This document shows, in pieces, positions 9,022 through 39,903 of a DNA stretch of 39,925 nt; positions within the stretch are counted from its first letter, which is position 1, and every line of letters begins with the position of its first letter. The notes beneath the pieces were generated by a model, which saw only the letters and a program-made list of their open reading frames with translations, did no database searches and was not told where the DNA came from. Both the position numbers and the translations under genes were made by a program. The DNA lies in the IMG/VR virus record IMGVR_UViG_3300026546_000010, positions 1 through 39,925 of that record, one strand, 5' to 3'. The DNA comes from a virus. Its lineage: Duplodnaviria; Caudoviricetes.

Positions 9022-12000
9022 ATGGCCTGCATAAACAAAAAACTAAAAAATAAAATAAAACTCAAAGTCCTACGCTTGGATGCGGACTCATTCAAGAAGA
9101 CATTGGGGTTCGATTTCTATAAATTTCAAGACAATCTTATGGAGAAAATCCTCCATTGGTCATCATCAGATGCATACGTCAAAGAACTAAAAGAAGTGGT
9201 CAAAAACGATGAAATGCGCCAGAAGCTCATTTCTAAACTAAAAAAATCCAATGATGCAAAATGGCTATTTGAGGGAGTTGAGGAGACAGACAAGCTGGGA
9301 ATGATCTCAAGGGCAATAGCGTTCAAACATATTGTGGCAAATGTAAAAATGCAACAAGATATTATCAACAAAACACCAGGAGCAAGAGACGTTGATCTCC
9401 ATGATAAAAAAGGTGAAACAATACAAATAGCAGCAAACTATACATACTTGGCTATTGGAAGAGACATTGCCATTGCAATGGGGGTTCGTCCAACAAGGGT
9501 TCCACCAGCACTAGGAAATGCGTTCTATATGCAAATTGGAAAGGTACAAGTTGAAGCACTAGCTAAGCTACAGAGACAAACAAGAAGCAAAAAAGGTAGT
9601 GGACAAATCAATCTACTGTCTGTTAAAAAACAAGGCAGAACAATTATCAATGGAGAGTATAATAAGGATCATACACCAGTTAAAGGAGAGGGGCCTGTAC
9701 GACAGGCAGAGACTTATGCAATCAATCTAAACTTCTTCGCAAATGGCAATAAGCAAGCAATTGAAGAAGCCTTAATGAAGGGATCGCTTGAAGGAATTGA
9801 TAACACAAACAATAATCTAAGAAACACAATGTCATTTGTCTCTGGGGTAAGTGATCTCTTTGCTCCAAAATTTGAACACCTTCCTTTAAATAAAAGAGAA
9901 GATCAAGGGAAGCCAACTGTAGAAACAGACGGAAGTGTAAGAATAGAACCAAACGAAAAAGACACAAAGAACCTTTCGCCAGAAGGGATAAAAGCTTCAT
10001 TTAGATGGAAAAAAACACTAAGAAGCCTAGCAGAAGGAACGATGGTTGTAAACCAGACCGCACTCAAGGCACTCGGAACCTTGAAGGGGTTCCTTGGCCA
10101 ATTGGACTACCAGGGCAAAGGAATCAGGCTAAGAGATATTAAAAACATCGCAGGATTGACCCCGTACCAGATGCACCAAATATTCGGAACATTCTATCAT
10201 GAATTTTCCTCAAAAGATTCGGAAGCATCAGACTGGGGAGTTTCATCGTCCAAGACAAATCCAATCATAAACACTCTTGTTGGGTTGGACAATTTTATGA
10301 ATAAAAATGGCACAGCGAAGAAACTAATGAATGAAATAGTAGTCTATACAACTACACGTTTTGGGTTTAAAAACAATGTGCTTAATGAGCAATCAAACAA
10401 GCCATTCGCAAGACAAGTCATTGAAGGGCTTCCTGTAAAATACAAAATTGGCGGAACCCAGTTTGGTATACTAGTAAACGGAATGTCAAAAAACTATGGC
10501 ATACCAGAGGCAGATATAGTATCTGGACAGAACAAAAATCTTGAAGCTGTCATAACAAAATATGATCAAATTGCGCAAAAAGATGGGGACTCATTATTGC
10601 AATTCATGGGAGAGCTTGTAAACGGAGAAGTGGAGCTAAATGGCAAAAAATACAAAGTGCCATCAATTGACAATTCGGTCTGGGGGCAACTTGTATTAAT
10701 AGAAAACCTATCCAAGATAAGGGCAGCACAAAGAAGTGGACAAGACGTTGTATCCTTAGCGGCAACAATAGAAGTGGATGCGGTAGGTTCAGGGCCGACA
10801 ATTCAAGCAATGCAATCATTGGGAATCAACGAAGAACCTATACTTAAGTTATTTCAAATGCTAGGCATGACAGAAGAAAGCATAGCTGAAATTGGACCAG
10901 AAAAACTAGCAAATGACTTCTATGGTGTTTTTGGAAACGCCCTTAATGGTACAGAAATAGAAGGGAAAATACAAAAACTTGTTGATCTTAAACTGTTCAG
11001 CAATGAACGAACCATTCATAAAAAAGCAATGATGGTTGTTGGATACGAAGCAGGAAGCGCAACAGCAAAACATGATGTCGCAAATGAGCTGACAAAAGAA
11101 GTCCTCAAGCTTGGAATGGAAGAGGGAATGACGAAAGAAGGACTTGAGTTCCTGAAAAAACAAATCCTAATAATAAATCCTGACCTTGAAATAGGAAATG
11201 TAAAAAATGGAAAAGATCTAGTGCAGACAGCTGGTGTGCAACAAGCAATCCATGAATATTTCTACGACAACTACACAACTGAACTAGACGAAAAGGTGCG
11301 ATTAGTTCTCGACGAATTTCTCGCCAAACGCAAGGGAAAGGTAAGAGACTTTACAGAAACAATACAGAATAACCTACGAAAAGACAAAAAAATAATCACA
11401 AAAATGATGCCCTATGCAGCTAGGGTAATTCTGAATGACCCCGCTCACCCAGATCATAATCCATATGATATGAAAGAAGATTTTCAGGAATGGGCAGCAA
11501 AAGAAAAAAGCAACCTGAAAAAATACGGAATAGAGCTAACGTCAAGACGTATAGTTCTGAAAGACCAAGCAGGTGTAAAAAATGTTCCTGTACAAGAAAA
11601 AATATTCAACATGCTTACTGCAATTGTTAATGCAGTTCACTCAATAGATGCAGGCCAGTTTTTGTTTTCCCATGAAGCAACAATGGCAGAAATCAAAAAG
11701 CAAATAGCCAGTAAAGATACAGACAACTTCACAAAAGAACAATTAAAAATTTCACTTGGGAACAAGAAAAAATTGATGCACGATGGAAATGGTGCAGATG
11801 CATACTACACAGAAGTGTATCAAGAAGAGTATCACAACCAAGCAATAGACGCACACAAACAATATTCAATCGAAGTAGAAATAGCTAAAACAGCACTATT
11901 GTCAACAGACATGGAGCATCAAGAACAAATAGATCACGCAATAGAATTGGTCGCAGAAGCAGAAGCAAGACTCGATGAACAGAAAGAGTCGCTAGAGTTG

Positions 12001-15000
12001 ATCCAAAAGAACAAGAGATTCAAGAAAGGAAAGTTCGCTGATTATTTCACAGATAGCAAAATAGATGCCACCAAACTTCAAGAACATGACTTCGGTACGG
12101 AGCAAGTTGATACCAGCACTCCAGCACGGCTAAAAGAACAATCTCCTGATGTGGAAATGTCCAAGCTAGAGAAAGCAGTCAGAAGCGGTAAAGACGCATA
12201 CATAGACCTTGAGTTTTCATTTGATGAGAACCCCAAGAATGGGCAGAAAGAAATATATCAAATTGCAGCAATCAATAGTAAGGGAGAAGAGTTTGTCAGA
12301 AACTTCTACCCAACCGGAGAGATGGCTGCAAAATACTCAAAAGCGGTAGAAGGGAAAGAGTACCTATCGTTGAAGGAACTAAAAAGTGCAGAAGGCGCAA
12401 AGCCATATTCACAAGAAGCAGTCAATCAAGCACTTGATGAGCTTAATGGACACCTCAATGAAGACTCACTGACAGCCTATGCGGGGTTCTATGCAGACTT
12501 CAAACATATAGACAATTACGAGAACGGGAGAAAACTCCTCTCGTCAAGAGAGCTGATTGATGCACACAAAGCAGCACTACACAAGCTTGGAATGGTAGAC
12601 AATCCGAAGGGATCTACTCAAGGAGAAATAGCCAATAAGCTTGGGGTAGAGCAAGGCACTGACAGCAGAACACATGAAGCGATGTCAGATACAAAAACAC
12701 TGAAAGAGCTGTCAGGGAAATTAGCAAAAAATGATACAAGAGGATCAATATCAGCAATACTAAATGAACTAGGGAAAACAAATGAGTTCCTTGGCGACAT
12801 AGTAAACAAGATTGATTATGATGCACAAGAAAATTCATTTGATCCAAGAACCAGAACACTAAGCTTAAAAAAAGGAGCAAATAGAGAAGCAGTGGGACAT
12901 GAAGTTACACACGCAATAACACTAGATTATATTGCTTCAAGAAAAGGACAACAATCAAGAGAATATAAAAAGATAAAACAAGCATACAAATTCACAAAAA
13001 ATAATATAAAATATTTAAAGCAAAAATTTGCAAATAATCCAGAGATCTTATCATCATTAGAACATATAGCAAATGATAAAGAGAATGTGGGGATTGCAGA
13101 GTTTGTTGCCCTTGGGGCAACAAACACCACATTCAGACAAGACTTAAAATCTGGGTCTATAATAAAAGCAATTAAAGACTTCCTCAAAAATGCAATCAAT
13201 AGACTGCTTAGAAGACCAAAAGACATGAGAGTTACCAATATGGTAGCAGAAGACATGGGACAAGACCTTGTAAAAACCATAGACAAAATCATAAGAGATT
13301 CTGTTGACTTCCAAGACGAAACAAGCTCTGGGCCACAAAAGAAAAAACAACAAACACGGGGAAGAACAGCAACAGAGTTTACCGAAAAACTGGGCATGCC
13401 AAAACAAAATTCCAAGCCAAAGCAAACAACCAAGGAAGTTAGAACCATTCTTAAGGAGCTCGACTGGAAACCATTTAATGACCCCGCTATGTCAAACACC
13501 ATGGATGCACCAATTCTAAAAAGTCTTGAAGATATTAACTCATATACAAGAACAATACTAATTGAATCAATACTTGAGAACCCCACTTTACGTGCAATGA
13601 CAAAAAAACTTGGGGAAAAAATGGATGAGAAATTGTCCAAATATCCAATCTACGCTGATAACAAAAACAGGGCTACTGACCTATGGGAGCACTCACCATT
13701 GCTACAGAAGATGAAAACCTATCTTGCCCCAGAAAGAAGCGGTGATGCCTATACGTTAAACAAGCTTCAAACCTCAATTGCAAATGCAGAAAAGCATGCA
13801 AGACAAATAGAATCAGCCCAGATCAAACAGATCAATGACCTAACAAGGGATCTCTCAAAGGAAGCACAAGAAGGAGTCTTTCACGCTACAACAACTGTTC
13901 CGTTCTTCCATTTATTGAATGATAAAAGTGGAATCGTAAACGAACTTTTACGTTCCAATAACCTTAAGGGGGATATAGAAACAAAGATTGTTGAACTTGC
14001 GAGGGAAAGCCAAATACCAAAAACACATCTTCAGCAGATTGGTGAGTTGGCACAATTACTTGCTCGTAAAAAAGGGCCAAAGGTCATATCACATAAAAAA
14101 ACATTGCCAGTGTACAACCTGCATTCAATTGGTTTCAGTGAACATACACTCCCATATGCCCAAAAGATACTAGCACTACAAACAATGCTCGCAGAACCAA
14201 AGGCTATTGAGGGGTTCAAAGAACTACAAAAGAATCCAGAACTGTTTAAAACAATGGCAGCTGTCTCTGCTGCGCTAAAAACAGCGCATGACAGAGTAAT
14301 GGTCAATGACGCAAACAAGAGAATGTACAAAGAAAATCTTGTTAAAGAACTCTTAAATGAGCCGCTAGAAATGCACGCAATCACAAAAGAAGATTTGGCA
14401 AATGGACACTTTGCAGAATTGAATGGTTGGAGAATTGTCAGACAACCAACTACTGGATATGGTATTGCAGTCCGCAATGCAAAAGACATAACGAACCAAC
14501 CAGGGCTTGGCACAACGTTATCATATAACTTCGCGGATATTACTGTACCAAAAGACAAGTTCATCAAAGCAGATAACTATGTGACTGTCTATGACAGAAA
14601 AGGACAACCGAGAAGAAAACTTGTTTTGACACAAGAAGAGATTGATAGCATAGGAGAAATCAGAACTCCATCAGATGCAATTGTGCGAACATACTCACAA
14701 ATCGCTGCACTAGAGGAAACTGAATCAGCCAGAAAAGCACTGATGTCTGCACAATTCAACAAAAAGCTATCAACAAGAAAGGAAGAGAATCAGTTCGCCG
14801 AAGCACTAAAAGATATGAGAATTGAAGAAGTACCATGGGCAGTATCATTCAATTCAAAAAAAGATGCAATTAAGTGGCTTGCACAAAACAAAGAGGCAAG
14901 ATACAAATACGCTCTTGTTGACAACATGACGCAATTCAATAATGCAAATGAAAAGATACATCTAGTCAGGATTGACATGAAAGATCAACTCATGGGGTTC

Positions 15001-16113
15001 GAGGATGTTGTTGCATTTAAGGATAGCGTATTCTTTAGAAACGCAATGTATACCCTAAGACAAGTAGTGAAAATGACCAAGCTGCATATGACAGTAACCA
15101 ACCCAGCAAAAATAGCAGGAGACACTACATCAAATGTAGCAATCATGCTTGCAATGGGAGTATCACCAACAAGCATTATCAGTGCATTTAAACATGGTCC
15201 TAAGAGACAACGAGAAATCGCTGCACTCCAAATAGAACAAATAGACCTGCGGATGCAAATAGATGCAACCAGCAGCCAGACAAGAAAGAAGAAACTCAGG
15301 GCACAAATGAGAGAGGTCAAAAAGAAGATAGCAGAACATCCATACGGAATGCTACTTATGGAAGGAATGATCCAGTCAATCTCAACAGAAATCCTAGACA
15401 AAGACAAATCAGTCATTGCGGGGGTTCAGCATGACGTAGAAGGATTACTCAACAAATACCTAGCCCTTGAAGACAAGGAAGGAAAAACAGACCTAAACAA
15501 CGCAATAGCAGCACTCCTCTCTAAAGGGATCAACCTTGAGACAATACTTACCTTTATAGGTAAGGGAACAGAGAATAGAAAGGTAGTAGGAACCCTTGGT
15601 AAAACACTGCACAATGCAGGTATAGGCCTTAAAGACATCAAAGCAAATAAAGATGTAGCCAAGTATATTACAGAATGGATGGCAACACCAGAAAGTGGAG
15701 CGGTAAGGGTTGGATCAGCATTGGTAGAAAGTGTTGACATCACATCTCGATATGCACTCCTGCAACATTTAATGAAAAACAAAAAAATGTCAAAAGAAGA
15801 AGCAGTTCCAAAAGTTCTTGAGCTCTTCATTGACTACAAAGTAAATATGCCGAAGGAGCTCAAGTACGCAAGTGACACTGGGGTTCTGCTCTTCCCATCA
15901 TTCTGGATGAGAATACAACGATCTGTGTATAGACTTGCACGACAGAATCCAGCTACAGTCACAGCTGGAATGTCGCTTGAAGCACTTATGGATGTACATA
16001 TCCCTACAATTTATGACTCATTTATAGGGGCGAAGGAACACTTCTTCTATACACCACAGATAGATGAATCAACCTTCTTCCCGACCCATATCTTCGATTT
16101 CGTCCCCAAATAA
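9022..16113 (+). CDS. Virion-encapsidated single-subunit RNA polymerase (N4 vRNAP-like) with DEDDh exonuclease and zincin-like domains
   Basis: Motif A EVDAVGSGP (~10771), motif B RTIHKKAMMVVGY (~11008), VHSIDA, motif C MHDG (~11776); IDLE...AYAGFYAD...HEAMSD (12196-12690); HEVTH...EFVA (12898-13110); 2363 aa with one Cys. Confidence 0.85.
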   Translation: MACINKKLKNKIKLKVLRLDADSFKKTLGFDFYKFQDNLMEKILHWSSSDAYVKELKEVVKNDEMRQKLISKLKKSNDAKWLFEGVEETDKLGMISRAIAFKHIVANVKMQQDIINKTPGARDVDLHDKKGETIQIAANYTYLAIGRDIAIAMGVRPTRVPPALGNAFYMQIGKVQVEALAKLQRQTRSKKGSGQINLLSVKKQGRTIINGEYNKDHTPVKGEGPVRQAETYAINLNFFANGNKQAIEEALMKGSLEGIDNTNNNLRNTMSFVSGVSDLFAPKFEHLPLNKREDQGKPTVETDGSVRIEPNEKDTKNLSPEGIKASFRWKKTLRSLAEGTMVVNQTALKALGTLKGFLGQLDYQGKGIRLRDIKNIAGLTPYQMHQIFGTFYHEFSSKDSEASDWGVSSSKTNPIINTLVGLDNFMNKNGTAKKLMNEIVVYTTTRFGFKNNVLNEQSNKPFARQVIEGLPVKYKIGGTQFGILVNGMSKNYGIPEADIVSGQNKNLEAVITKYDQIAQKDGDSLLQFMGELVNGEVELNGKKYKVPSIDNSVWGQLVLIENLSKIRAAQRSGQDVVSLAATIEVDAVGSGPTIQAMQSLGINEEPILKLFQMLGMTEESIAEIGPEKLANDFYGVFGNALNGTEIEGKIQKLVDLKLFSNERTIHKKAMMVVGYEAGSATAKHDVANELTKEVLKLGMEEGMTKEGLEFLKKQILIINPDLEIGNVKNGKDLVQTAGVQQAIHEYFYDNYTTELDEKVRLVLDEFLAKRKGKVRDFTETIQNNLRKDKKIITKMMPYAARVILNDPAHPDHNPYDMKEDFQEWAAKEKSNLKKYGIELTSRRIVLKDQAGVKNVPVQEKIFNMLTAIVNAVHSIDAGQFLFSHEATMAEIKKQIASKDTDNFTKEQLKISLGNKKKLMHDGNGADAYYTEVYQEEYHNQAIDAHKQYSIEVEIAKTALLSTDMEHQEQIDHAIELVAEAEARLDEQKESLELIQKNKRFKKGKFADYFTDSKIDATKLQEHDFGTEQVDTSTPARLKEQSPDVEMSKLEKAVRSGKDAYIDLEFSFDENPKNGQKEIYQIAAINSKGEEFVRNFYPTGEMAAKYSKAVEGKEYLSLKELKSAEGAKPYSQEAVNQALDELNGHLNEDSLTAYAGFYADFKHIDNYENGRKLLSSRELIDAHKAALHKLGMVDNPKGSTQGEIANKLGVEQGTDSRTHEAMSDTKTLKELSGKLAKNDTRGSISAILNELGKTNEFLGDIVNKIDYDAQENSFDPRTRTLSLKKGANREAVGHEVTHAITLDYIASRKGQQSREYKKIKQAYKFTKNNIKYLKQKFANNPEILSSLEHIANDKENVGIAEFVALGATNTTFRQDLKSGSIIKAIKDFLKNAINRLLRRPKDMRVTNMVAEDMGQDLVKTIDKIIRDSVDFQDETSSGPQKKKQQTRGRTATEFTEKLGMPKQNSKPKQTTKEVRTILKELDWKPFNDPAMSNTMDAPILKSLEDINSYTRTILIESILENPTLRAMTKKLGEKMDEKLSKYPIYADNKNRATDLWEHSPLLQKMKTYLAPERSGDAYTLNKLQTSIANAEKHARQIESAQIKQINDLTRDLSKEAQEGVFHATTTVPFFHLLNDKSGIVNELLRSNNLKGDIETKIVELARESQIPKTHLQQIGELAQLLARKKGPKVISHKKTLPVYNLHSIGFSEHTLPYAQKILALQTMLAEPKAIEGFKELQKNPELFKTMAAVSAALKTAHDRVMVNDANKRMYKENLVKELLNEPLEMHAITKEDLANGHFAELNGWRIVRQPTTGYGIAVRNAKDITNQPGLGTTLSYNFADITVPKDKFIKADNYVTVYDRKGQPRRKLVLTQEEIDSIGEIRTPSDAIVRTYSQIAALEETESARKALMSAQFNKKLSTRKEENQFAEALKDMRIEEVPWAVSFNSKKDAIKWLAQNKEARYKYALVDNMTQFNNANEKIHLVRIDMKDQLMGFEDVVAFKDSVFFRNAMYTLRQVVKMTKLHMTVTNPAKIAGDTTSNVAIMLAMGVSPTSIISAFKHGPKRQREIAALQIEQIDLRMQIDATSSQTRKKKLRAQMREVKKKIAEHPYGMLLMEGMIQSISTEILDKDKSVIAGVQHDVEGLLNKYLALEDKEGKTDLNNAIAALLSKGINLETILTFIGKGTENRKVVGTLGKTLHNAGIGLKDIKANKDVAKYITEWMATPESGAVRVGSALVESVDITSRYALLQHLMKNKKMSKEEAVPKVLELFIDYKVNMPKELKYASDTGVLLFPSFWMRIQRSVYRLARQNPATVTAGMSLEALMDVHIPTIYDSFIGAKEHFFYTPQIDESTFFPTHIFDFVPK

Positions 16114-19633: not shown

Positions 19634-20125
19634 CTATCTCCCTGTACTGCCAAATCCACCTGTACGTTCTACTTTCTCACCTACAGCTATCATTCCCGTA
19701 TTGTGGCTCATTAAAATTGCCTGACCTATTCTGTCACCCTTGTGAACATGGTATGGATCATCGCTATTTATATTGGTAATAACCATTTTAATTTCATTTG
19801 GATAGTCCAAATCAACGATGCCGACACCATTTGCAAGTATAAGTCCCCTCAAAGAGAGAGAGCTACGAATCATCAACTGAAGGTAGCTTGAAGCCATGAA
19901 CACCTCATATACATGTTTAATGTCCATGCCAAATCCATAATCTGAATCGTTGATTTTATCCAAAATTGCTTGAGTATCTATAACGATACCAAGACCAACA
20001 AGTTTTGTTTGCCCAATTTCAATACTAACATCTTCGTTGGCATATAAATCAACAGCCGCTGAATACTTTGTACTACGTTTAGGTGGGGTTCCGCCATTAA
20101 TTGTTTTCAGTATTTCGTACTTCAT
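19634..20125 (-). CDS. dut: Trimeric dUTPase
   Basis: All five motifs: AAVDL, RSS, GIVDLDY, RIGQ, RTGGFGSTG. Confidence 0.93.
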   Translation of the reverse strand: MKYEILKTINGGTPPKRSTKYSAAVDLYANEDVSIEIGQTKLVGLGIVIDTQAILDKINDSDYGFGMDIKHVYEVFMASSYLQLMIRSSLSLRGLILANGVGIVDLDYPNEIKMVITNINSDDPYHVHKGDRIGQAILMSHNTGMIAVGEKVERTGGFGSTGR

Positions 20126-20751
20126 TTGTTTGATTCCTTTTTGTGTAATTCATTGCAGTATTTGTTAGCCTTGTCCCAAGTCACTTCTGTCTTGGAGGAC
20201 TCAGACCACTCTAATTTTCCCTTCTTTATCCTTTTGACACAACGAACATAGGATGCACTATACTTATAGAAACTGTTCGTATATCCACTGTTGAAATTAA
20301 TAAACCACGCCATATGTGGATTATCAGCACGTATTGTAGAGCTCCAGTATGCCTTAGAAACAAAGCCATTTATCTTCAAGCCACCTTTGTCGTAATCAAA
20401 CATACCTTGAAGCTCCATAATTGTTGGCAGCTTCCATTCTATGTTCAATTCATTACAATATTGGTTTGCCTTGTCCCAAGACATCGCGGATTCAGAAGAT
20501 TCTGACCATATTAAGTCACCAGTTTCGGTCTCTCTGACACAACGCACACAAAAAGTAAAGGATTTATCATAATAATCTGTATGACCATTGTCAAAATCGA
20601 CGACCCATGCAACGCCAGTTTTGTATGCATATGTGGTAGAACCCCAGTAATCATCTGAATTGAAGCCACTTATCTTCGGCTTCCCTTTCTCTCTATCAAA
20701 CATGCGAGAGAGTTCATCTATTGTCGGTAGCCTCCACTTACCTCTCATCAT
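20122..20751 (-). CDS. DUF1566 (Lcl C-terminal, C-type lectin fold) protein, two permuted units
   Basis: Two copies of W(R/K)LPT..EL...YW.ST...AW...F..G...VRCV...L.WS....W..A..YC. Confidence 0.85.
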   Translation of the reverse strand: MMRGKWRLPTIDELSRMFDREKGKPKISGFNSDDYWGSTTYAYKTGVAWVVDFDNGHTDYYDKSFTFCVRCVRETETGDLIWSESSESAMSWDKANQYCNELNIEWKLPTIMELQGMFDYDKGGLKINGFVSKAYWSSTIRADNPHMAWFINFNSGYTNSFYKYSASYVRCVKRIKKGKLEWSESSKTEVTWDKANKYCNELHKKESNK

Positions 20752-21665
20752 TCATCCTTTTACAGTGTTCGCTTGCTTCATCCCACGTCATTTTATTTTC
20801 AAGGGATTTAGACCACTTGAGACCCCCATCGTCACCTTCCCTAACACAACGCACGTAACAGCTACCGTCCTTATCGTAGTTGCTCTGGTAGCCATTGTAG
20901 AAATCGACATACCACGCATAGCCGGTGTAGCCTTCATAGGTGGTAGAAGACCAGTAATAGTCAGACGCGAATCCATCTATTTTTGGCTTGCTATCTTCGT
21001 AATCAAAAACACCTTGTAGCTCATTGACTGTTGGCAATCGCCATTTACTTTTCATTGCTTAGCCTTTCGCAGTATTTCTTTGCTTCGCTCCATGTCATTT
21101 CATCTTTAGAGGGTCTTGACCATTCCAGCTTACCCTTTTCAATTTCCTTAACGCAACGGACGTAATAGGTGAAGGACTTACCGTTGTAGTCCGTGTTGCC
21201 AGTATGGAAATAGACGATCCACGCATAGTCTGTGTGGTGGACATGCGTAGTAGAACTCCAATAGCCGTTCGAGGTGAATCCATCTATTTTTGGCTTCCCA
21301 CATTCATAATCGAAAGCATTACGTAGCTCCTCTATGGTTGGCAAACGCAAGTTACTTTTTTCATTGTTCAGCTCCTCGCAATATTTCTTTGCTTCGCTCA
21401 ATGTCATTCTATTTTTGGTAGATTCCGACCATTTCAATTTACCTTTTTTATTTTCTCTCACACAGCGCACGCAATAGGTACTAAGCTTATTGCCGTTGTA
21501 CGCGTAGCCACGATGGAAATGAACGATCCATACACCGTTCATATTGTGAGAATACGGGGTAGAGCTCCAATAGTAGTATGGAGTAAATCCATCTACTTTT
21601 GGTCTTCCATTTTTGTAATCAAACGCTTCATGAAGTTCATCCACTGTTGGTAAACGCCAGTTTCC
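20130..21665 (-). repeat. Tandem array of five ~300-bp DUF1566 units
   Basis: Protein-level repeat; shared DNA such as AAAATAGATGGATTC and GCAGTATTTCTTTGCTTCGCTC / GCAATATTTCTTTGCTTCGCTC. Confidence 0.85.
20738..21055 (-). CDS. DUF1566 protein, single permuted unit
   Basis: WRLPTVNEL...YWSSTT...AWYVDFYNG...YVRCVR...LKWS...MTWDEASEHC. Confidence 0.85.
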   Translation of the reverse strand: MKSKWRLPTVNELQGVFDYEDSKPKIDGFASDYYWSSTTYEGYTGYAWYVDFYNGYQSNYDKDGSCYVRCVREGDDGGLKWSKSLENKMTWDEASEHCKRMNDER

Positions 21666-21992
21666 ACTTTTACCACTTTCGTAGGTGTATTTCTTAGTTT
21701 CCACAATCTCACAAGCTTTTACGACATACTCTTTAAGTATCGTATTGCTAAATCGTTTTGCCGCGTCAATCATCTTTTTAGAGGGGACTGTTCCGTCGCC
21801 ATCAATGTCACCGTATTCTTCGTCAAGGTCCTCTATCAATGGAGACAGGATGTCATTTATTGGATCAATACTTGCTTGCTTCGTTTTAAGCCTATTTACA
21901 ACCACGGGAAAGTTCAAGTTGCCCTCTGCTTCAATCGCTTCTTTAGGCGTATCATATAGATTGTCAGTTCCCTCTACTGCGTAATATGTCAT
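21045..21992 (-). CDS. Acidic phage domain fused to two DUF1566 units
   Basis: Start MTYYAVEG at 21992 (RBS AAGGA); two RLPT...VRCV...MT units. Confidence 0.82.
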   Translation of the reverse strand: MTYYAVEGTDNLYDTPKEAIEAEGNLNFPVVVNRLKTKQASIDPINDILSPLIEDLDEEYGDIDGDGTVPSKKMIDAAKRFSNTILKEYVVKACEIVETKKYTYESGKSGNWRLPTVDELHEAFDYKNGRPKVDGFTPYYYWSSTPYSHNMNGVWIVHFHRGYAYNGNKLSTYCVRCVRENKKGKLKWSESTKNRMTLSEAKKYCEELNNEKSNLRLPTIEELRNAFDYECGKPKIDGFTSNGYWSSTTHVHHTDYAWIVYFHTGNTDYNGKSFTYYVRCVKEIEKGKLEWSRPSKDEMTWSEAKKYCERLSNEK

Positions 21993-22036
21993 TTGTTCAT
22001 CCTTGTATTCTTCTTCTGTTTTCAAAAAAACATGAA

Positions 22037-22645
22037 TTATACACCTCCACCAAGCAAAGGAGGCAGTGTATTTGCAAGCTGGAGGAGGGGTTCCTTCCAG
22101 CGACCCCACCATTCCAAGGATTCAAGATCCATTCCATCAATTACATTGTCGGGGAAATTCTTCCATTCCTCAATAAGATACCGTTTGCACCCTATCTTCA
22201 TATGGTTGTCAACGATAACCACAACATACTTACCGGTATAAACTAAGAGATACTTTTCTGTTGGAAAGCCAAAAATCTTCATCTCTGGAACGTGCATTGT
22301 TTGAACAACAATAGCTTCATTGGCTTGAACAAATTCAGCCTCTATAATATCAGCCTTTAGGCGATTGGTAACGAGTCGTCTGCATACAATCTTATTTGCA
22401 ACAACGCTTCTTGCTTCAAATTCGTTAACTTTAAAACAATTCCCAGTGACTGTAATAACATGAGCTTTGAGCTTGAGGTTACCATAGAGACCTTTTCCTG
22501 CTTTGATATGACCTCTAACCTTTAGGCGAGGAACAATGATCTCAATATCATCATCACAAACAATGCTTTCATCCAGAACATACCATTCTTCGTTATCTAT
22601 CGTTTCCGTATAGATGCCAGGATAATTTGTGTTTATTACCATCAT
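22037..22645 (-). CDS. Beta-helix-like protein with C-terminal IGC..W..F.D..I..MD...WW domain
   Basis: Short alternating hydrophobic repeats; the C-terminal domain resembles that on phage pentapeptide-repeat proteins. Confidence 0.55.
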   Translation of the reverse strand: MMVINTNYPGIYTETIDNEEWYVLDESIVCDDDIEIIVPRLKVRGHIKAGKGLYGNLKLKAHVITVTGNCFKVNEFEARSVVANKIVCRRLVTNRLKADIIEAEFVQANEAIVVQTMHVPEMKIFGFPTEKYLLVYTGKYVVVIVDNHMKIGCKRYLIEEWKNFPDNVIDGMDLESLEWWGRWKEPLLQLANTLPPLLGGGV

Positions 22646-30293: not shown

Positions 30294-30604
30294 GGGATAA
30301 TTTCAAAATGAGCCTGTATCAACGATAAAGCCTCAAGATATTTTGAACCATATAGCCTCCTATGTTTTCTTTCCATAGGAGTAAGCCCTAAATGAAACTT
30401 ATAATATGTATCTCTAAGAAGATTGTAAACAGTTTGTGCTTTCCAGCACACACAGCTCCTTTTTTGAGTTCTAACATAGTAGAAATCAGGATCAACATTC
30501 TTGGCATATGCCAAATTAAGATAAGTAGAATACGCAATAGAGTATCCCATTATTTCTGACCAGTTGCCAGCGTTTAATCCTTCGCATTCTTTACATGGTC
30601 TCAT
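30290..30604 (-). CDS. Hypothetical Cys-containing protein
   Basis: 104 aa; CxxC and CxC; ATGA overlaps on both sides. Confidence 0.6.
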   Translation of the reverse strand: MRPCKECEGLNAGNWSEIMGYSIAYSTYLNLAYAKNVDPDFYYVRTQKRSCVCWKAQTVYNLLRDTYYKFHLGLTPMERKHRRLYGSKYLEALSLIQAHFEIIP

Positions 30605-30861
30605 TTGTTTTCTCCTTCTGTCAAGCTATCATCAACCATTTCCTGGAAACGATACTCTTCAGCAGTGGCCTGCTCGTCAGCAAGATATTTCTCACAAAAT
30701 ATAGCGTATTCCTCAGAATACAAAGCAATACCATCACTGGTGTCAAACACTAGGCTACGAAACATCTCAATAGCTTCGTCCCTATCGGTACGAAGCTTAT
30801 GTTCTATCCATTCAAGTTCGACATCAAAGTCGTCAATAATATCCTCAATTGAATCAATCAT
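30601..30861 (-). CDS. Small acidic protein
   Basis: Start MIDSIED after GAGG; D/E-rich. Confidence 0.6.
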   Translation of the reverse strand: MIDSIEDIIDDFDVELEWIEHKLRTDRDEAIEMFRSLVFDTSDGIALYSEEYAIFCEKYLADEQATAEEYRFQEMVDDSLTEGENK

Positions 30862-31183
30862 CGAATGCCTCTCTTGTTCTCCTCCAGCCGTCAATAATTC
30901 CTGCAATCAAATCAGAAATGCTGTCATAGCCATTATCTTTATAGAAAGCAGAAAGAGATCTGCATTGGTACCAAGTCTTATCACTTGGATCATTAACGTT
31001 GCGACGAACAACGGTAAGTCCTATGTCTTTACTGTGATTTTCGCTAACCTCTATGATCATTTCATCTCTATAGTTATAGTACCCAATAACAATAGGGGTA
31101 ATAGCATTTGTATGACCGTTATAAACCTGTCGCAAAATGTCACGATCATGATAGTTGTGAGTAATATGATACTTTCTACTCAT
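30854..31183 (-). CDS. Hypothetical protein
   Basis: Start MSRKYH after AAGGAG. Confidence 0.6.
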   Translation of the reverse strand: MSRKYHITHNYHDRDILRQVYNGHTNAITPIVIGYYNYRDEMIIEVSENHSKDIGLTVVRRNVNDPSDKTWYQCRSLSAFYKDNGYDSISDLIAGIIDGWRRTREAFDD

Positions 31184-33727: not shown

Positions 33728-35140
33728 TTATTGATAATACTCGTTAAACATCTGAATGATTGCAGCATCAGACATATCCTCAAGATAGTCATCTACTTCA
33801 AGAAGAATCCGAAGCATTCTGACGACAATTACACGCTTCATAGAAGCAGGCTCCGCATTAAATGTGTTCACAAACACAAGTATTTTACCAGAAAAGTGCA
33901 TATTGCTGAATGACAACAATGGAGCCCCAATATTACCCATAAACTCAAACAAGGAGACAAGCTCTTCATCAGAGAATGTTCCTAACAATTCATTAGTAGC
34001 CGACAGGGTAAACCTCTCAAATGGAGACATAGGTTGGGGTTCACCCATATCTGCAAACAAGCTTTTGCTATGATTGCCTCTATAAGTAACCTTTCTGCCT
34101 TGGAGCTCATATGGAGTATGATGGGTCGTAGATGTAACAATTGAAGTAGTAATATTGTCTGGGTCGATCAAGCTGTAATCAACAGGAAAGTATTCATTGT
34201 CCCACTTTTCAAGCAAGAAACGAAACAAATCAGTCTTAAGCCCAGCACTTTTATCTTTTAGGTCAAGAAGTACATAGCTATACTTTGCCTTCTCGGAAGG
34301 CTCTTGATCAGGCTCTATCCCGAACAATTCATGAATTGGGGTCGGTTGAACAGTGGGGGCAGGGAAAAATTGTCTTCCGCCAACAATGGTAACATTTTGG
34401 CCACGAAGATAATTTAACTTATCATCGGAACTACTGAACAGTCTATATTCACTATGGATCAGCTCAGCCAGCTTATCACCGTGCTGTAAAATTCCACTAA
34501 ATGAAGGAATGTTCTGACCATCTTGCAGTGGGTAGACAACACCCGGGTTGCTAGAATCTTTCCTTAGATCAACAGTAGAAAAGTTCGAGATACCAGTATG
34601 ACTATACCGATATTCTCCATCGCTGCCAATAGCGAGAACCGATTCATTCTCCTTGACCTTCCTGAACGTAAGCCCTTCACCTGGGTGAGCATGAATAGTA
34701 TTGAACCCCACAAGGTTCCATTCTACATGTTCAAACAAATGACTAATGAACTGGAATGTTTTGCTTTTGTAAAGCTCTTTAATCTTTTTATGAGACTTTT
34801 TGATGGCTTTTTCGTTTGCAGCAGAAACATCATCAAGATGAAAATGGACAGAACCATAACTCACTTGCTGTGGATAATTATAAGCCACCAGTGGGAATCC
34901 AATGTATAAAAGAGTGTTATCTATAAGCACTTTTCCAACAAGAGCAGTATAATGGAACTGCCATTCATTCTTGAACTCACGAACTTCACCAGAAGCAGCC
35001 TGGATTTCTTCCAGAGCACGATTGCTCCAGAAGAGTAAACTAAACAAGTTAGTTCCAGCCTTGTCTGTTATTTCCTTAGTCTCCTGCTTGTTATTCATCA
35101 GCTGAGACCTCATCGCTGTCGTCTTCTTGTTGTACTGCAT
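33728..35140 (-). CDS. JAB/MPN+ metalloisopeptidase-like protein
   Basis: NEWQ glutamate, YPQQVS..SV, IHAHP (~34682-34693), FSTVD (~34568-34582). Confidence 0.72.
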   Translation of the reverse strand: MQYNKKTTAMRSQLMNNKQETKEITDKAGTNLFSLLFWSNRALEEIQAASGEVREFKNEWQFHYTALVGKVLIDNTLLYIGFPLVAYNYPQQVSYGSVHFHLDDVSAANEKAIKKSHKKIKELYKSKTFQFISHLFEHVEWNLVGFNTIHAHPGEGLTFRKVKENESVLAIGSDGEYRYSHTGISNFSTVDLRKDSSNPGVVYPLQDGQNIPSFSGILQHGDKLAELIHSEYRLFSSSDDKLNYLRGQNVTIVGGRQFFPAPTVQPTPIHELFGIEPDQEPSEKAKYSYVLLDLKDKSAGLKTDLFRFLLEKWDNEYFPVDYSLIDPDNITTSIVTSTTHHTPYELQGRKVTYRGNHSKSLFADMGEPQPMSPFERFTLSATNELLGTFSDEELVSLFEFMGNIGAPLLSFSNMHFSGKILVFVNTFNAEPASMKRVIVVRMLRILLEVDDYLEDMSDAAIIQMFNEYYQ

Positions 35141-36401
35141 TTTCTTCCTTTATGTTTCTTAATTGATTAATTGCCTTCTGCAACGCAGGAAATTCCGAAA
35201 GAATAATTTCGTCCGCAAAGCTAGATGACATTACGGCTGATGCAAAGAGCATCTTGAAATCAGCCATCTTTTCATCTGGAATGTCCTCAAGTCCAAGTGA
35301 TGTTATAACATCCTGGATACTACCAACTTTAAGCACTTCTGGCTTCATGCCAATACGTTCCATCGTTCTATCAACAGAGGACCGGTTAAATATCTCAAAG
35401 GAAACAGCAATATTAAGTGCATTCCAAAGAGCATGATCAGGAGCACAAACAGCAGTATTCAGTGGGGAATCAAAATTGCAATAATTCAATGCAGCAAATC
35501 CATGAATGGAATAGGCTGCACCAGAATGTGTGCAAATCCCATAGCGAGCTCCATCATCAAAAGATAACTTATTGTTCTCGTCAATATCAATACTATACTT
35601 GTTGTGATGAACCACAGAGAAGGACATGTTTGCATGAAGCAAAGGTCCTAAACTCCAAGAATTGCCATCATAACCAAGAGCATATCCATAGAAAGGAAAT
35701 ACAAGTCCCTTGTATGAGCCAAGATGCGCTGGAGAAAACATGAAGGCATTATCTGGCGAAGCCAGGTTCCCTTCCGTATCAGTAAAGATCGATGCATAAT
35801 CAACCTTAACTCTGCTATGATGCACCTTCTCAGCGAAGTGCACTTTAGTATAGAGTCTATGCTCGGTAGCAACACGATCATCAATAGCGATATATTTATA
35901 GATAGCAGACTTATAGTCAATATAATTGGACAAATCCTTGTCAACATAGGTACTGTCTGTAACGATGAGGCATGAATACTTACGAGTATCAAGCGGTTCA
36001 CCATTAACAACGAGTCTCTTTGCTATATAAGGATGAAGAAGATTAAACTTATTACGCTCCTTGTCAACAACAATAAGACCAACAAACGATGATCCGGACT
36101 CCAAAAAAACAGAGTACCCAATCTCAATACAGTCATTGAGAGATAGATCAAAGTCGCCAATTTGTGTATATTCATATCCAATAAAGGATGGTCGAGTTAG
36201 AAACTCGGTCTTGGGATAAAACTGTTCAACAGTTTCATTAACCAAATGAATAGCACTATGAGCGTTCACAAAAGCAAATGTAGTTTCGCTAGGAAACTCA
36301 GAGCTAAAGTCCTGTGTGCTTTCTTCCTTTTCACTATTAACTATATTATCAAATTCATCAATGGAATATTGAAGAATTTTATTCTCTAACATTGTGTGCA
36401 T
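35091..36401 (-). CDS. Prokaryotic E2-like (ubiquitin-conjugating fold) protein
   Basis: Start MHTMLE 1 nt after the E1 stop; PLLHANMS...GICT...LNYCNFDSP resembles the E2 HPN..G.IC motif; lies between E1 and JAB. Confidence 0.55.
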   Translation of the reverse strand: MHTMLENKILQYSIDEFDNIVNSEKEESTQDFSSEFPSETTFAFVNAHSAIHLVNETVEQFYPKTEFLTRPSFIGYEYTQIGDFDLSLNDCIEIGYSVFLESGSSFVGLIVVDKERNKFNLLHPYIAKRLVVNGEPLDTRKYSCLIVTDSTYVDKDLSNYIDYKSAIYKYIAIDDRVATEHRLYTKVHFAEKVHHSRVKVDYASIFTDTEGNLASPDNAFMFSPAHLGSYKGLVFPFYGYALGYDGNSWSLGPLLHANMSFSVVHHNKYSIDIDENNKLSFDDGARYGICTHSGAAYSIHGFAALNYCNFDSPLNTAVCAPDHALWNALNIAVSFEIFNRSSVDRTMERIGMKPEVLKVGSIQDVITSLGLEDIPDEKMADFKMLFASAVMSSSFADEIILSEFPALQKAINQLRNIKEENAVQQEDDSDEVSADE

Positions 36402-36402
36402 C

Positions 36403-37602
36403 TTACCACCCCCTTGAAAGAATGCGTTGATCACTAAGATCAAATTCAAATTGCTTCCTGTTGAGACGCACATCATTACGCACGTCCCATAACACTGAAG
36501 AAGATGAATAGCTAAATGAGTCCAAAATCGGAGTATGTGGCACAAGATTATTAGCATCTTGAGTCACAAGCAACTTGGCGAGATCATCATCTACATCTGC
36601 AAGAAATTTAATAAACTCAAATGCTGCAAACATTTGGTTCAGATAAAACTTCTCTAAAGCAATAAGTCCATACGTTTCATTAAGGAACCCCACATCAACT
36701 GGAGGGTTAATCCGAAGAGAGATATATCTCCCTTTGTGAGTTAACGCAAACCAGTTGTGTCCCCTTGCTTGAAGCCTCTGACGAGTAGCCATGTCTGGGG
36801 CTCCAACGATAATATGATCAGTAGGGAATGTGCTAGTATAATAGTCATCATAGATAGCCTTCGGAGTCAACCTATTCATTAATCGTGTAGGAATTGAATT
36901 TATCTTCAATGTACCATTTGTTGGAACAAACGGAATTCTAGGTAAGTTATCAAATTCGTACTTATCATTATCTGCAACCCATATACTTTTAAACAAGCCA
37001 TCATAGTCTGCAATACGAGCAAACTCTGACATCCAGTAAAGCAGGTTAGACCCAGAGCCTCCAACTCCAAGCACAAACAATTGATGTTTTCTTTTCTTAA
37101 GCTTCGAGAGAACCCCTCTAAGCTCAGTCTTGCTATGGCTGATAAACTTGAGAATAACCTTATCAGGAATTTTTCTTACATCAAGATATTCAGCACATGA
37201 GTCAGTAAGAGCAACACATTTTTGACTTCGTATTTGTTTTTCATCATATGACACTGAAGGCTTAGTAACAATCCTAGAGAGCAAAGGAATATTGCGTACA
37301 AGATGTGTCATCAGAAATGCCTCTGCAAAATAATTCTTGTTGTTGTTTGTAACAACTGTTTTCTGAGAAGTTTCACGAAAATAGTATCGATTTACTAATC
37401 GTGACATCAAGGTTTTCCCCAAGTTCATTTCCTTATATCGGAAAAAAACATCGTTCGACAACCCTTTTGCTTTATAGCCATCATTTACAATTTCATGTCC
37501 ATTGGTTGATACCAATGAACCATCATTATCTTTAAAAGATGCCTTGCCATAATACTCCGATCCAGTAAAAAACGGAGCACTATATCCCTGTTTATTGTTC
37601 AT
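36403..37602 (-). CDS. ThiF/E1-like adenylating enzyme
   Basis: VLGVGGSGS, ADNDKYEFDNLPR, LKI, IVGAPD..TR, LNQMFAA. Confidence 0.82.
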   Translation of the reverse strand: MNNKQGYSAPFFTGSEYYGKASFKDNDGSLVSTNGHEIVNDGYKAKGLSNDVFFRYKEMNLGKTLMSRLVNRYYFRETSQKTVVTNNNKNYFAEAFLMTHLVRNIPLLSRIVTKPSVSYDEKQIRSQKCVALTDSCAEYLDVRKIPDKVILKFISHSKTELRGVLSKLKKRKHQLFVLGVGGSGSNLLYWMSEFARIADYDGLFKSIWVADNDKYEFDNLPRIPFVPTNGTLKINSIPTRLMNRLTPKAIYDDYYTSTFPTDHIIVGAPDMATRQRLQARGHNWFALTHKGRYISLRINPPVDVGFLNETYGLIALEKFYLNQMFAAFEFIKFLADVDDDLAKLLVTQDANNLVPHTPILDSFSYSSSSVLWDVRNDVRLNRKQFEFDLSDQRILSRGW

Positions 37603-37672
37603 TCTATCTCCCTTTGTAATATATTAGTAAAGACTAAAAAGATAATCTTAAATAATATATAAACACAAATAG

Positions 37673-37692
37673 GCCACGTATCTCTACGCGGC
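37673..37692 (-). terminator. GNRA-capped hairpin, probable attenuating terminator
   Basis: GCCGCGTA-GAGA-TACGTGGC then CTATTTGTGTTT, just after the 47-aa ORF. Confidence 0.6.
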
Positions 37693-37698
37693 ACAAAT

Positions 37699-37842
37699 TT
37701 AGATCCCAGAGTCACTTGACGCACTAAGTGTTTGTGAGCTAGGGGTTCTCACCTGTATAGGCTGACCGCCATTGGCAGCCCCTTTTTTCTCTACGGCCTC
37801 GCGGATAATCCGCTGAGCTTCTGTCTCTTTTTGCTCGGCCAT
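37699..37842 (-). CDS. 47-aa peptide, candidate conjugated modifier (not in ORF track)
   Basis: MAEQKETEAQRIIREAVEKKGAANGGQPIQVRTPSSQTLSASSDSGI; near-perfect RBS AAGGAGGTG; TAATG coupling to the upstream gene. Confidence 0.78.
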   Translation of the reverse strand: MAEQKETEAQRIIREAVEKKGAANGGQPIQVRTPSSQTLSASSDSGI

Positions 37843-38282
37843 TATTCACCTCCTTTATAAGTATCGTTACTGAAAAGACTAGAGTCGTCACATTCATCAT
37901 CGGCAGACTGCTCATCGACCTCTCCAAAGAGGTCAAACTCGTCAATAGCCTCAATGAATTGGTTCATCATTCCGCGAACATCCACGGAATTACCAAGGTC
38001 ACGCATTGCCGCATCAACCATTGCGGTTGACGCAGCTACCGCGTTGGGCTTGGTTGCGAACCACTTGATAACAACGCCTGCGAAGATGTTTGCCACGACA
38101 GCTTTACCCCAAGGGGTATAGAGATACTTTTTAGCCATCTTGCCTTTCCCTTTCAGGTTCTTGGCAATAATAGCTACAATGCGGTCATTGAGGACCCCAC
38201 CAATCTCTTGCTTCGTGACAGTCTTTGTGGCATCAGCGTTAGCTGCCATTAGTGCGGATAGTACCGCTTTTGTTTCGATCAT
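37842..38282 (-). CDS. Conserved phage protein (YxxTPxGKxVVAN family) with acidic tail
   Basis: 146 aa; RBS AAGGAG; Ala-rich helical; ends YKGGE. Confidence 0.7.
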   Translation of the reverse strand: MIETKAVLSALMAANADATKTVTKQEIGGVLNDRIVAIIAKNLKGKGKMAKKYLYTPWGKAVVANIFAGVVIKWFATKPNAVAASTAMVDAAMRDLGNSVDVRGMMNQFIEAIDEFDLFGEVDEQSADDECDDSSLFSNDTYKGGE

Positions 38283-38395: not shown

Positions 38396-38608
38396 TTATG
38401 TGTGCAATGATTGGTTCTTACGCCTAATAGCTAAGCGATAGAGAACATAAGCACAAATCACACTGTTCCCGACAGGGAACAGTGCTAAGCAAAGAACGAA
38501 TAAGTATTGAAACAAAACATTTTTGTTTCTATACTCTAGTATCTTTCTCTTGAAAAAGCACAGTATAGTGATTGCGCTAAGCACATACATTCCGTAAACA
38601 AACAACAT
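38396..38608 (-). CDS. Small membrane protein
   Basis: 70 aa, two hydrophobic helices; TAATG coupling. Confidence 0.6.
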   Translation of the reverse strand: MLFVYGMYVLSAITILCFFKRKILEYRNKNVLFQYLFVLCLALFPVGNSVICAYVLYRLAIRRKNQSLHT

Positions 38609-39359: not shown

Positions 39360-39394
39360 AAAAATAAGGAAAACTATCAGGGACTTTCGTCCCT
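39360..39394 (-). terminator. Intrinsic terminator
   Basis: AGGGAC-GAAA-GTCCCT followed by GATAGTTTTCCTTATTTTT. Confidence 0.65.
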
Positions 39395-39422
39395 AACAGC
39401 CATTATGAAAGGAGGAATAAAG

Positions 39423-39498: not shown

Positions 39499-39523
39499 AT
39501 AAAAGAGCAACGCGAAAGACGCG

Positions 39524-39757
39524 CTACTGTTCGTGTCTATCAAACTCAGTTACAGGGAAATATCCCCTAAACTCCTGATAGAGTTTTTTACCTCCTTTTT
39601 CTCTCTCCTTGTCTGTCGCCCTACGACAAATAAAGGAAATGTCATCAATAGATATAACAACATAGAAGTTGCTGCTGTACCTATTACCATTTATGCCAAC
39701 AAGCATAGGCTGTTTATTAACATAAACGGTTCTATTGGATAGTGGACCATCTAGCAT
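39524..39757 (-). CDS. Hypothetical protein
   Basis: Start MLDGPL after AAGGAG. Confidence 0.55.
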   Translation of the reverse strand: MLDGPLSNRTVYVNKQPMLVGINGNRYSSNFYVVISIDDISFICRRATDKEREKGGKKLYQEFRGYFPVTEFDRHEQ

Positions 39758-39836
39758 TTTTTCTCCTTTCATGTAGAAATAGAAAGGTACTAAGATAAAG
39801 TACATATCTATTCCTACATAGATAGACATAAAAAGA

Positions 39837-39903
39837 GGAACCCCCCTCTAGCAATGCTATGCATACAGGAGGTGTATTATATCGCAACTTGCTTGGGGGT
39901 TCC
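39837..39903. other. Long imperfect stem-loop closed by GGAACCCCC/GGGGGTTCC
   Basis: Nested pairings GGAACCCCC/GGGGGTTCC, AGCAA/TTGCT, TGC/GCA, ATACA/TGTAT around loop GGAGG. Confidence 0.55.

Follow-up and report, generated by a model that had tools for sequence, protein, structure and literature searches.

A phage peptide with an invariant near-terminal glycine as candidate tag of a putative ubiquitin-type conjugation cassette

Does a 47-residue open reading frame (ORF) in the genome of an uncultured phage encode the modifier of a ubiquitin-type conjugation pathway? The question is raised by the virus record IMGVR_UViG_3300026546_000010, analysed here over its whole length of 39,925 bases (hereafter the window; completeness ~48% according to CheckV), in which an earlier note had pointed to a hidden ORF ending in SDSG-I ahead of a gene for an E1-type enzyme. 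The ORF is present on the minus strand (Table 1), and comparison of homologous loci indicates that it is conserved and opens a phage cassette of four genes, which encode the peptide, an E1-type enzyme, a protein with a single invariant cysteine (hereafter the Cys protein) and a JAB-fold protein. We propose, regarding the case as evenly balanced, that the cassette specifies a phage-only ubiquitin-type conjugation pathway, in which a free, unfolded tag of 38-52 residues would be matured by the JAB protein, activated by a Cys-less, Tyr-type E1 and handed on by a Cys carrier that is not recognisably an E2.

The expression signals described for the peptide gene are borne out. Its ATG start codon follows the strong Shine-Dalgarno sequence AAGGAGGTG, a similar word stands ahead of all 19 peptide genes checked, and the TAA stop codon of the upstream gene (37842-37844) shares one A with the peptide ATG, which creates a TAATG coupling. 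The landmarks of the window peptide are V31 and L39 (positions -15 and -7 relative to the glycine), S43, S45-G46 and the one-residue tail I47, and its composition predicts a likely N-terminal helix followed by a polar linker or disordered tail. When a hidden Markov model (HMM) was made from 19 homologous peptides, excluding the window peptide and that of the close relative L003, the window ORF took first place among 828 six-frame segments (E 2.4e-8; next best 0.57), which argues that the ORF is more than a chance reading frame. Over the 36 alignable codons compared, the window and L003 peptides differ by eight synonymous and two non-synonymous changes; despite these mostly synonymous changes, the final residue is Ile in the window and Lys in L003.

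The homologous loci were collected through the cassette enzymes, without using the peptide as bait; single-sequence and two-sequence scans of viral contigs recovered no loci. Twenty-one other loci (20 distinct, as L012 repeats L011) extend upstream of the E1 gene, and every one of them has an ORF of 38-52 residues there. The count excludes L004-L007, which end short of the peptide position, and L026, which begins within the peptide gene; L002 corresponds to the window, and L027-L037, L039 and L040 duplicate earlier contigs. The small Gly-ended ORF that the earlier note expected upstream of E1 homologues is thereby found, together with its Gly, in 21/21 loci. It is retained in L014 and L020, where an extra gene is inserted between the peptide and E1 genes. 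The peptide occurs once per genome, at the cassette, in all nine records searched (with a profile that included these sequences).

With L012 dropped and the window's own sequence included, the set comprises 21 peptides (17 clusters at 70% identity), rich in Ala, Ser and Thr and almost devoid of aromatic residues. When they are registered on the last S/K-G, Gly is found in 21/21, Ser at -1 in 20 and at -3 in 16, L/I/M at -7 in 16 and V/I at -15 in 19. The tail beyond the Gly is one residue long in 12 peptides, two in four, three in three, four in one and eight in one, and the tails have no sequence in common. The conserved feature, as read from the alignment, is a fixed register of V/I(-15), L(-7), S(-3) and S-G followed by a freely varying tail of 1-8 residues, an ending like that of ubiquitin-like proteins (Ubls). 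The earlier note's penultimate Gly holds for 12/21 peptides and not for the other nine, which have tails of two to eight residues. An ending of this kind was seen in just 1/48 other Shine-Dalgarno-led ORFs of 30-60 residues from 19 of these loci. Four of the window's Shine-Dalgarno-led ATG ORFs of 30-200 residues pass a filter for Gly near the end, and the sole one located in the cassette and carrying a conserved Gly is the peptide. That the residues at -15 and -7 keep a constant distance from the Gly suggests that they bind a partner in an ordered manner.

The neighbouring enzymes provide a rationale for this ending. In the JAB/MPN-fold protein, the JAB/JAMM residues E59, H152 and D191 are invariant and H150 and S188 are conserved in at least 90% of 25 sequences; the fold matches, four of the 25 sequences show a weak Prok-JAB profile match, and the top VIA match of the window's model is BubCD. 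The Gly of the peptide is invariant, the tail behind it varies and a JAB-fold protein is encoded nearby, which lends comparative support to the earlier proposal that JAB trimming exposes the Gly. The E1-type enzyme of the window holds the complete ThiF/E1 core, namely the GxGG loop (G179-x-G181-G182), N-x-x-R (N219, R222), Lys (K233) and D-x-x-x-R (G267-A-P-D270, R274), along with H289 and E309-T-Y311-G312, and hhalign recognises it with a probability of 96.4. A tag precursor fits best the invariant Gly, the disposable tail, the hydrophobic spacing, the JAB metal-site residues and the E1 adenylation core taken together. The JAB protein would cut the peptide after Gly46, removing the tail, and the E1 would then adenylate Gly46, two steps that we consider highly probable.

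The route from the adenylate onward may be unusual. As the E1 family has an invariant Tyr311 instead of an invariant Cys, its chemistry is predicted to differ from the textbook E1 thioester. Tyr311 is found in 151/151 sequences, in an E-S/T-Y-G motif, 11 residues before N322; the Cys of PRTRC ThiF lies 14 residues before the matching Asn, which places the two residues three positions apart by eye. The Cys protein has a single invariant Cys (C287) and an invariant N255. This context, with Asn at -32 followed by I/V-C-T, resembles the 'HPN...C' order of E2 enzymes, though not significantly by profile. The Cys-less Bub E1 relies on an invariant crossover-loop Tyr, and its Y370F substitution abolishes conjugation (available sections of PMC11601596). 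As Tyr311 is likewise invariant and, by eye, lies close to the PRTRC loop-Cys position, we infer that the peptide is relayed via Tyr311 and Cys287 to lysines on target proteins. The peptide could pass via Tyr311, by analogy with BubCD Tyr370, or directly from the adenylate to Cys287, to end, during the early phase of infection, in an isopeptide bond with lysines of host or phage proteins; residues -15 and -7 would likely replace the last strand of the ubiquitin fold in binding to E1 or JAB. We lean towards this full scheme, in which trimming by the JAB protein and adenylation by the E1 are followed by transfer of the peptide through the Cys protein to target proteins.

The earlier note had seen no beta-grasp Ubl gene nearby. 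Consistent with that statement, the ThiS and Prok_Ub profiles matched nothing at E 0.1 in 16 records (eight at least 90% complete; two loci lay outside the search), and the controls matched in 12/14 and 2/14 genomes. The peptides themselves matched no Ubl or Pup family when scanned, and at 38-52 residues they are smaller than a beta-grasp protein (~65-75 residues or more). The two outcomes named at the outset as telling against the modifier, loss of the ORF or its Gly from homologous loci and a canonical Ubl elsewhere, were looked for and neither was seen in these loci and records.

Several observations weigh against the conjugation pathway. The Ubl search covered two Pfam families rather than the whole fold, and the window record is itself only ~48% complete. 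Pfam and NCBIfam yielded no E2 match for the Cys protein, and its comparison with eight Prok-E2_D proteins gave a probability of 0.35, no better than controls. The Mg-binding Asp270, present in the window, occurs in less than 55% of the 151-sequence E1 alignment, in which no Cys is invariant, as it would be in a canonical E1; 61% of the family have a Cys at column 294, where the window has none. The crossover-loop position of Tyr311 was assigned by eye, as the hhalign alignment stops short of it. The L020 peptide ends in K-G, with its register shifted by one. In addition, peptides can be substrates of ThiF-type enzymes with no conjugation to a protein, as with MccB and PaaA. The earlier description of an E1/E2-dependent modifier stands for the E1, through its adenylation core; its 'E2' is a Cys protein that gave no E2 match in profile or fold searches, and the E1 is without an invariant Cys.

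The remaining data on the two enzymes bear on their scope and structure. The E1 family comprises 304 representatives at 50% identity and looks almost phage-only: a pattern scan of 185,579 species genomes returned two short contigs from a single bin, and no match was found in GenBank phages. Its nearest NCBIfam match is the PRTRC ThiF family TIGR03736 (best E 5e-6, far below the cut-off). The two Cys residues of the window E1 (129 and 136) lie ahead of the ThiF core, and its closest relative lacks them. Many E1 relatives (P0027-P0160) reach 450-800 residues through long, variable N-terminal extensions, and a conserved R-Y...D...P...A-I-S...L-G-Y subdomain precedes the ThiF core; this subdomain is a candidate for the peptide-binding part. 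Complex prediction with E1 residues 56-399 and the peptide scored 0.00, which speaks neither for nor against binding. The Cys protein has 436 residues from the ATG at 36401 or 433 from that at 36392, the latter being used for numbering. Its model is strand-rich (predicted local distance difference test score 74); searches against the PDB (Foldseek, VIA) gave no E2/UBC or other clear match, the whole-model lists being filled by C-terminal helices, and a BFVD search returned one uncharacterised phage homologue.

Placed beside known systems, the cassette would work like Bub, Bil and Cap2/Cap3 and belong to none of them, because its tag is not of beta-grasp size, its E1 has no invariant Cys and its third protein has Cys where Bub has Ser. 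PRTRC elements combine a TIGR03736 ThiF with a protein A (JAB), a protein B (Prok-E2_D) and a protein C (Prok_Ub). The phage cassette resembles them in its nearest E1-family NCBIfam match and as a mobile-element cassette, and protein C of L042 has a short tail past its last Gly; PRTRC differs in its beta-grasp protein C and the Cys in its ThiF loop, and the phage Cys protein has no significant Prok-E2_D match. The likeness to Pup claimed in the earlier note applies to the small size and probable disorder of the tag and to its helical segment, whereas the fixed -15/-7 spacing suggests ordered partner binding. PafA, a ligase of the glutamine-synthetase type, attaches Pup via a Glu side chain, in a pathway not known to involve an E1, a JAB or chemistry at a C-terminal Gly; Pup and UBact have a C-terminal Glu/Gln and a PafA-type ligase, and the phage peptides differ from them in their conserved S-G end with a tail and in their ThiF-type partner. 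MccB and PaaA likewise pair a ThiF-type enzyme with a short ribosomal peptide, and they are not known to work with a JAB or a Cys carrier, or on Gly-ended precursors with a tail.

The closest parallels are described in the available sections of PMC11601596 (Bub), PMC10097602 (type II CBASS, the anti-phage signalling system based on cyclic oligonucleotides) and PMC10557695 (Bil). In Bub (BubAB, BubCD), a precursor is cut by the JAB behind its conserved Gly and, as noted above, the Cys-less E1 has an invariant loop Tyr; however, Bub is bacterial, BubA is a beta-grasp Ubl, the E2 uses Ser, and JAB-E1 and Ubl-E2 fusions are formed, whereas the phage cassette has separate genes, a 38-52-residue tag and a third protein that keeps an invariant Cys. 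Type II CBASS Cap2/Cap3 likewise involves an E1 substrate that is not ubiquitin-folded, a single terminal Gly and a JAB partner, and the cGAS C-terminus is a known non-ubiquitin E1 substrate, the E. coli CD-NTase studied ending in Ser-Gly; there the E1 acts on a large signalling enzyme's tail, E2 and E1 are fused in Cap2, which has catalytic Cys residues, and the system serves host defence. Bil (BilABCD) shares the four parts (tag, E1, E2 and JAB) and JAB pre-processing of the tag to expose Gly, and differs in its beta-grasp Ubl, its multidomain E1 with a CYS domain, its canonical E2 and its role in bacterial defence.

Four other explanations of the cassette were weighed. The trimmed and adenylated peptide could itself be the end product, as in ribosomally synthesised and post-translationally modified peptides, being nucleotidylated, cyclised or amidated, with the helix as leader and the Cys protein as tailoring enzyme. 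The precursor-first gene order, the strong Shine-Dalgarno sequence and the 3' hairpin suit this explanation, as do an E1 without an invariant Cys, a Cys protein without an E2 profile match and the precedent of MccB and PaaA, which adenylate short peptides. We nevertheless regard it as unlikely, given that conjugation systems in the available published sections have a JAB partner and a Gly with a disposable tail, that the invariant Tyr and Cys suggest a covalent relay, and that inspection of the loci by eye revealed no exporter or immunity-type gene next to the cassette. A minimal sulfur carrier, whose trimmed and adenylated Gly would become a thiocarboxylate as in ThiS, MoaD and Urm1, with a Cys287 persulfide supplying sulfur for phage DNA, tRNA or cofactor modification, is in our view decidedly unlikely. 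It would account for the ThiF-type E1 and single C-terminal Gly and for the nuclease-like gene that follows the cassette in a DNA-metabolism region in the window, L001, L003 and L008, and JABs also mature sulfur carriers (available sections of PMC1779556); however, genes after JAB differ between loci and no sulfur-using enzyme is a constant neighbour. The E2-like order around the Cys, not significant by profile, also speaks for conjugation over sulfur transfer.

We hold it to be very unlikely that the peptide serves to decoy or inhibit conjugation by the host (Cap2, Bil or Bub), or that it is an unrelated early protein kept by synteny. The trimmed peptide could mimic a Cap2 substrate, as an E. 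coli cGAS ends in Ser-Gly (available sections of PMC10097602). Small phage early genes are, moreover, often anti-defence genes. Against this, the peptide keeps the company of its own E1, Cys protein and JAB in different phages (records up to 205 kb) while all flanks change, and its single copy sits at the cassette in the nine records searched. A split ubiquitin fold, with the peptide as last strand plus Gly and a separate small protein as the rest of the beta-grasp, is barely credible to us. A protein of 81-103 residues with a strand-NG-strand-helix-strand pattern is encoded just upstream of the peptide in 9/21 full-peptide loci (L012 set aside), and one of seven scanned matches ThiS weakly (E 0.11). 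This match lacks significance, the genome search at E 0.1 gave no ThiS, and the window's clade has a DUF7566-like gene beside the peptide instead. Comparison by hhalign of the peptide and 81-103-residue proteins with eight 'PRTRC-C-like' proteins was uninformative, only ~3/8 of the latter being real Ubl-like proteins.

If the proposed conjugation pathway is correct, a free phage peptide of ~45 residues would define the minimum that an E1 must recognise, and the beta-grasp fold would be dispensable for a stand-alone E1-dependent modifier. Tyr-type E1 chemistry would be paired with a Cys carrier, and phages would possess their own tool for tagging host or viral proteins. Bil, Bub and CBASS Cap2 are host systems with a shown or proposed role in defence that use a beta-grasp Ubl or an enzyme tail (available sections of PMC10557695, PMC11601596 and PMC10097602). 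A free phage peptide tag of this size was not found in full-text literature searches, subscription papers lying outside them, nor in the available sections of PMC1779556 or PMC10557695; the operon tables that supplement PMC1779556 and PMC11601596 may be relevant to its novelty.

The GAGA-loop hairpin described between the peptide and E1 genes was also recovered, with eight pairs. It begins six nucleotides past the peptide stop and has a weak T-run, and its folding z-scores are -3.0 (121-nucleotide region) and -2.9 (50 nucleotides past the peptide stop). In the latter interval, z is below -2 in 12/19 loci, compared with 17/163 other gene ends of the same loci. Hairpin sequences differ between loci, T-runs are short, and clear misses are L010, L014 and L020, the latter two being the loci with an inserted gene; the hairpin is conserved as a structure. 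It may act as a leaky terminator or RNA-stabilising stem, which would yield more peptide than enzyme. It is not unique, since hairpins are common in the window's genome: the early region has seven terminator-like sites against 2.4 expected. Further strong intergenic hairpins of its minus strand lie at 38460-38485, 39372-39401, 39506-39528 and 39832-39849. A second, AU-rich stem (37600-37672, minus strand) follows the GC hairpin and pairs with part of the E1 Shine-Dalgarno sequence in the minimum-energy fold, not in the centroid.

Table 1. Features of the cassette and its upstream neighbours (window coordinates unless a locus is named)
Feature	Position	Strand	Remarks
JAB/MPN-fold protein, 470 residues	33728..35140	-	E59, H150-x-H152, S188, D191
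Cys protein, candidate E2-like carrier	35091..36401	-	invariant P233, Y235-G236, N255, C287, S309
ThiF/E1-type adenylating enzyme, 399 residues	36403..37602	-	adenylation motifs present, no invariant Cys
GAGA-loop hairpin, 8 bp, 5 G-C pairs	37673..37692	-	between peptide and E1 genes; position conserved, sequence not
Peptide gene, 47 residues, candidate tag precursor	37699..37842	-	homologues in 21/21 other loci reaching upstream
Shine-Dalgarno sequence of peptide gene	37847..37855	-	AAGGAGGTG; 4 nt ahead of ATG, within upstream gene's last codons
DUF7566-like gene, 146 residues	37842..38282	-	coupled to peptide gene; clade-specific neighbour, not constant cassette part
81-103-residue family	e.g. 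L013:3374-3631		L010, L011, L013, L014, L016, L017, L018, L019, L022; coupled to peptide gene

The gene upstream of the peptide varies among 21 loci: it is DUF7566-like in five (window, L003, L008, L009 and L038), belongs to the 81-103-residue family in nine and is of other kinds in seven, which identifies the peptide, and not its neighbour, as the constant first gene. In L001 the DUF7566 gene lies downstream instead. The 146-residue upstream protein, which ends in K-G-G-E, was considered as a tag and rejected, as those codons are the peptide's Shine-Dalgarno sequence and the upstream gene differs among loci. Matches of this protein are confined to two PHROG families and to DUF7566, of which it covers the C-terminal third alone; a 101-residue ORF at 30601-30906 gives a weak match (E 0.004) to the middle of phrog_4263, and the two are possibly parts of a split family.

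Between the window and L003, the 146-residue protein is 92% identical and the flanks are highly similar, and the E1, Cys protein and JAB are 50-62% identical; this pattern suggests faster change or exchange of the enzyme module. The JAB gene is divided into two ORFs in L011:5876-7592 and L021:5994-7195, breaking right after H-x-H-P, with a gap of ~355 nucleotides before the F-S-G-x-D part in L011; the active site may be interrupted there by an intron or shifted in frame.

Elsewhere in the window, three adjacent minus-strand ORFs (20122-22112; 209, 105 and 355 residues) are repeats of one domain of ~100 residues with the motif W-R-L-P-T ... Y-W-S-S-T ... V-R-C-V, also present at L001:120-515. 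The 2363-residue protein encoded at 9022-16113 is, given its resemblance, possibly an N4-like virion RNA polymerase.
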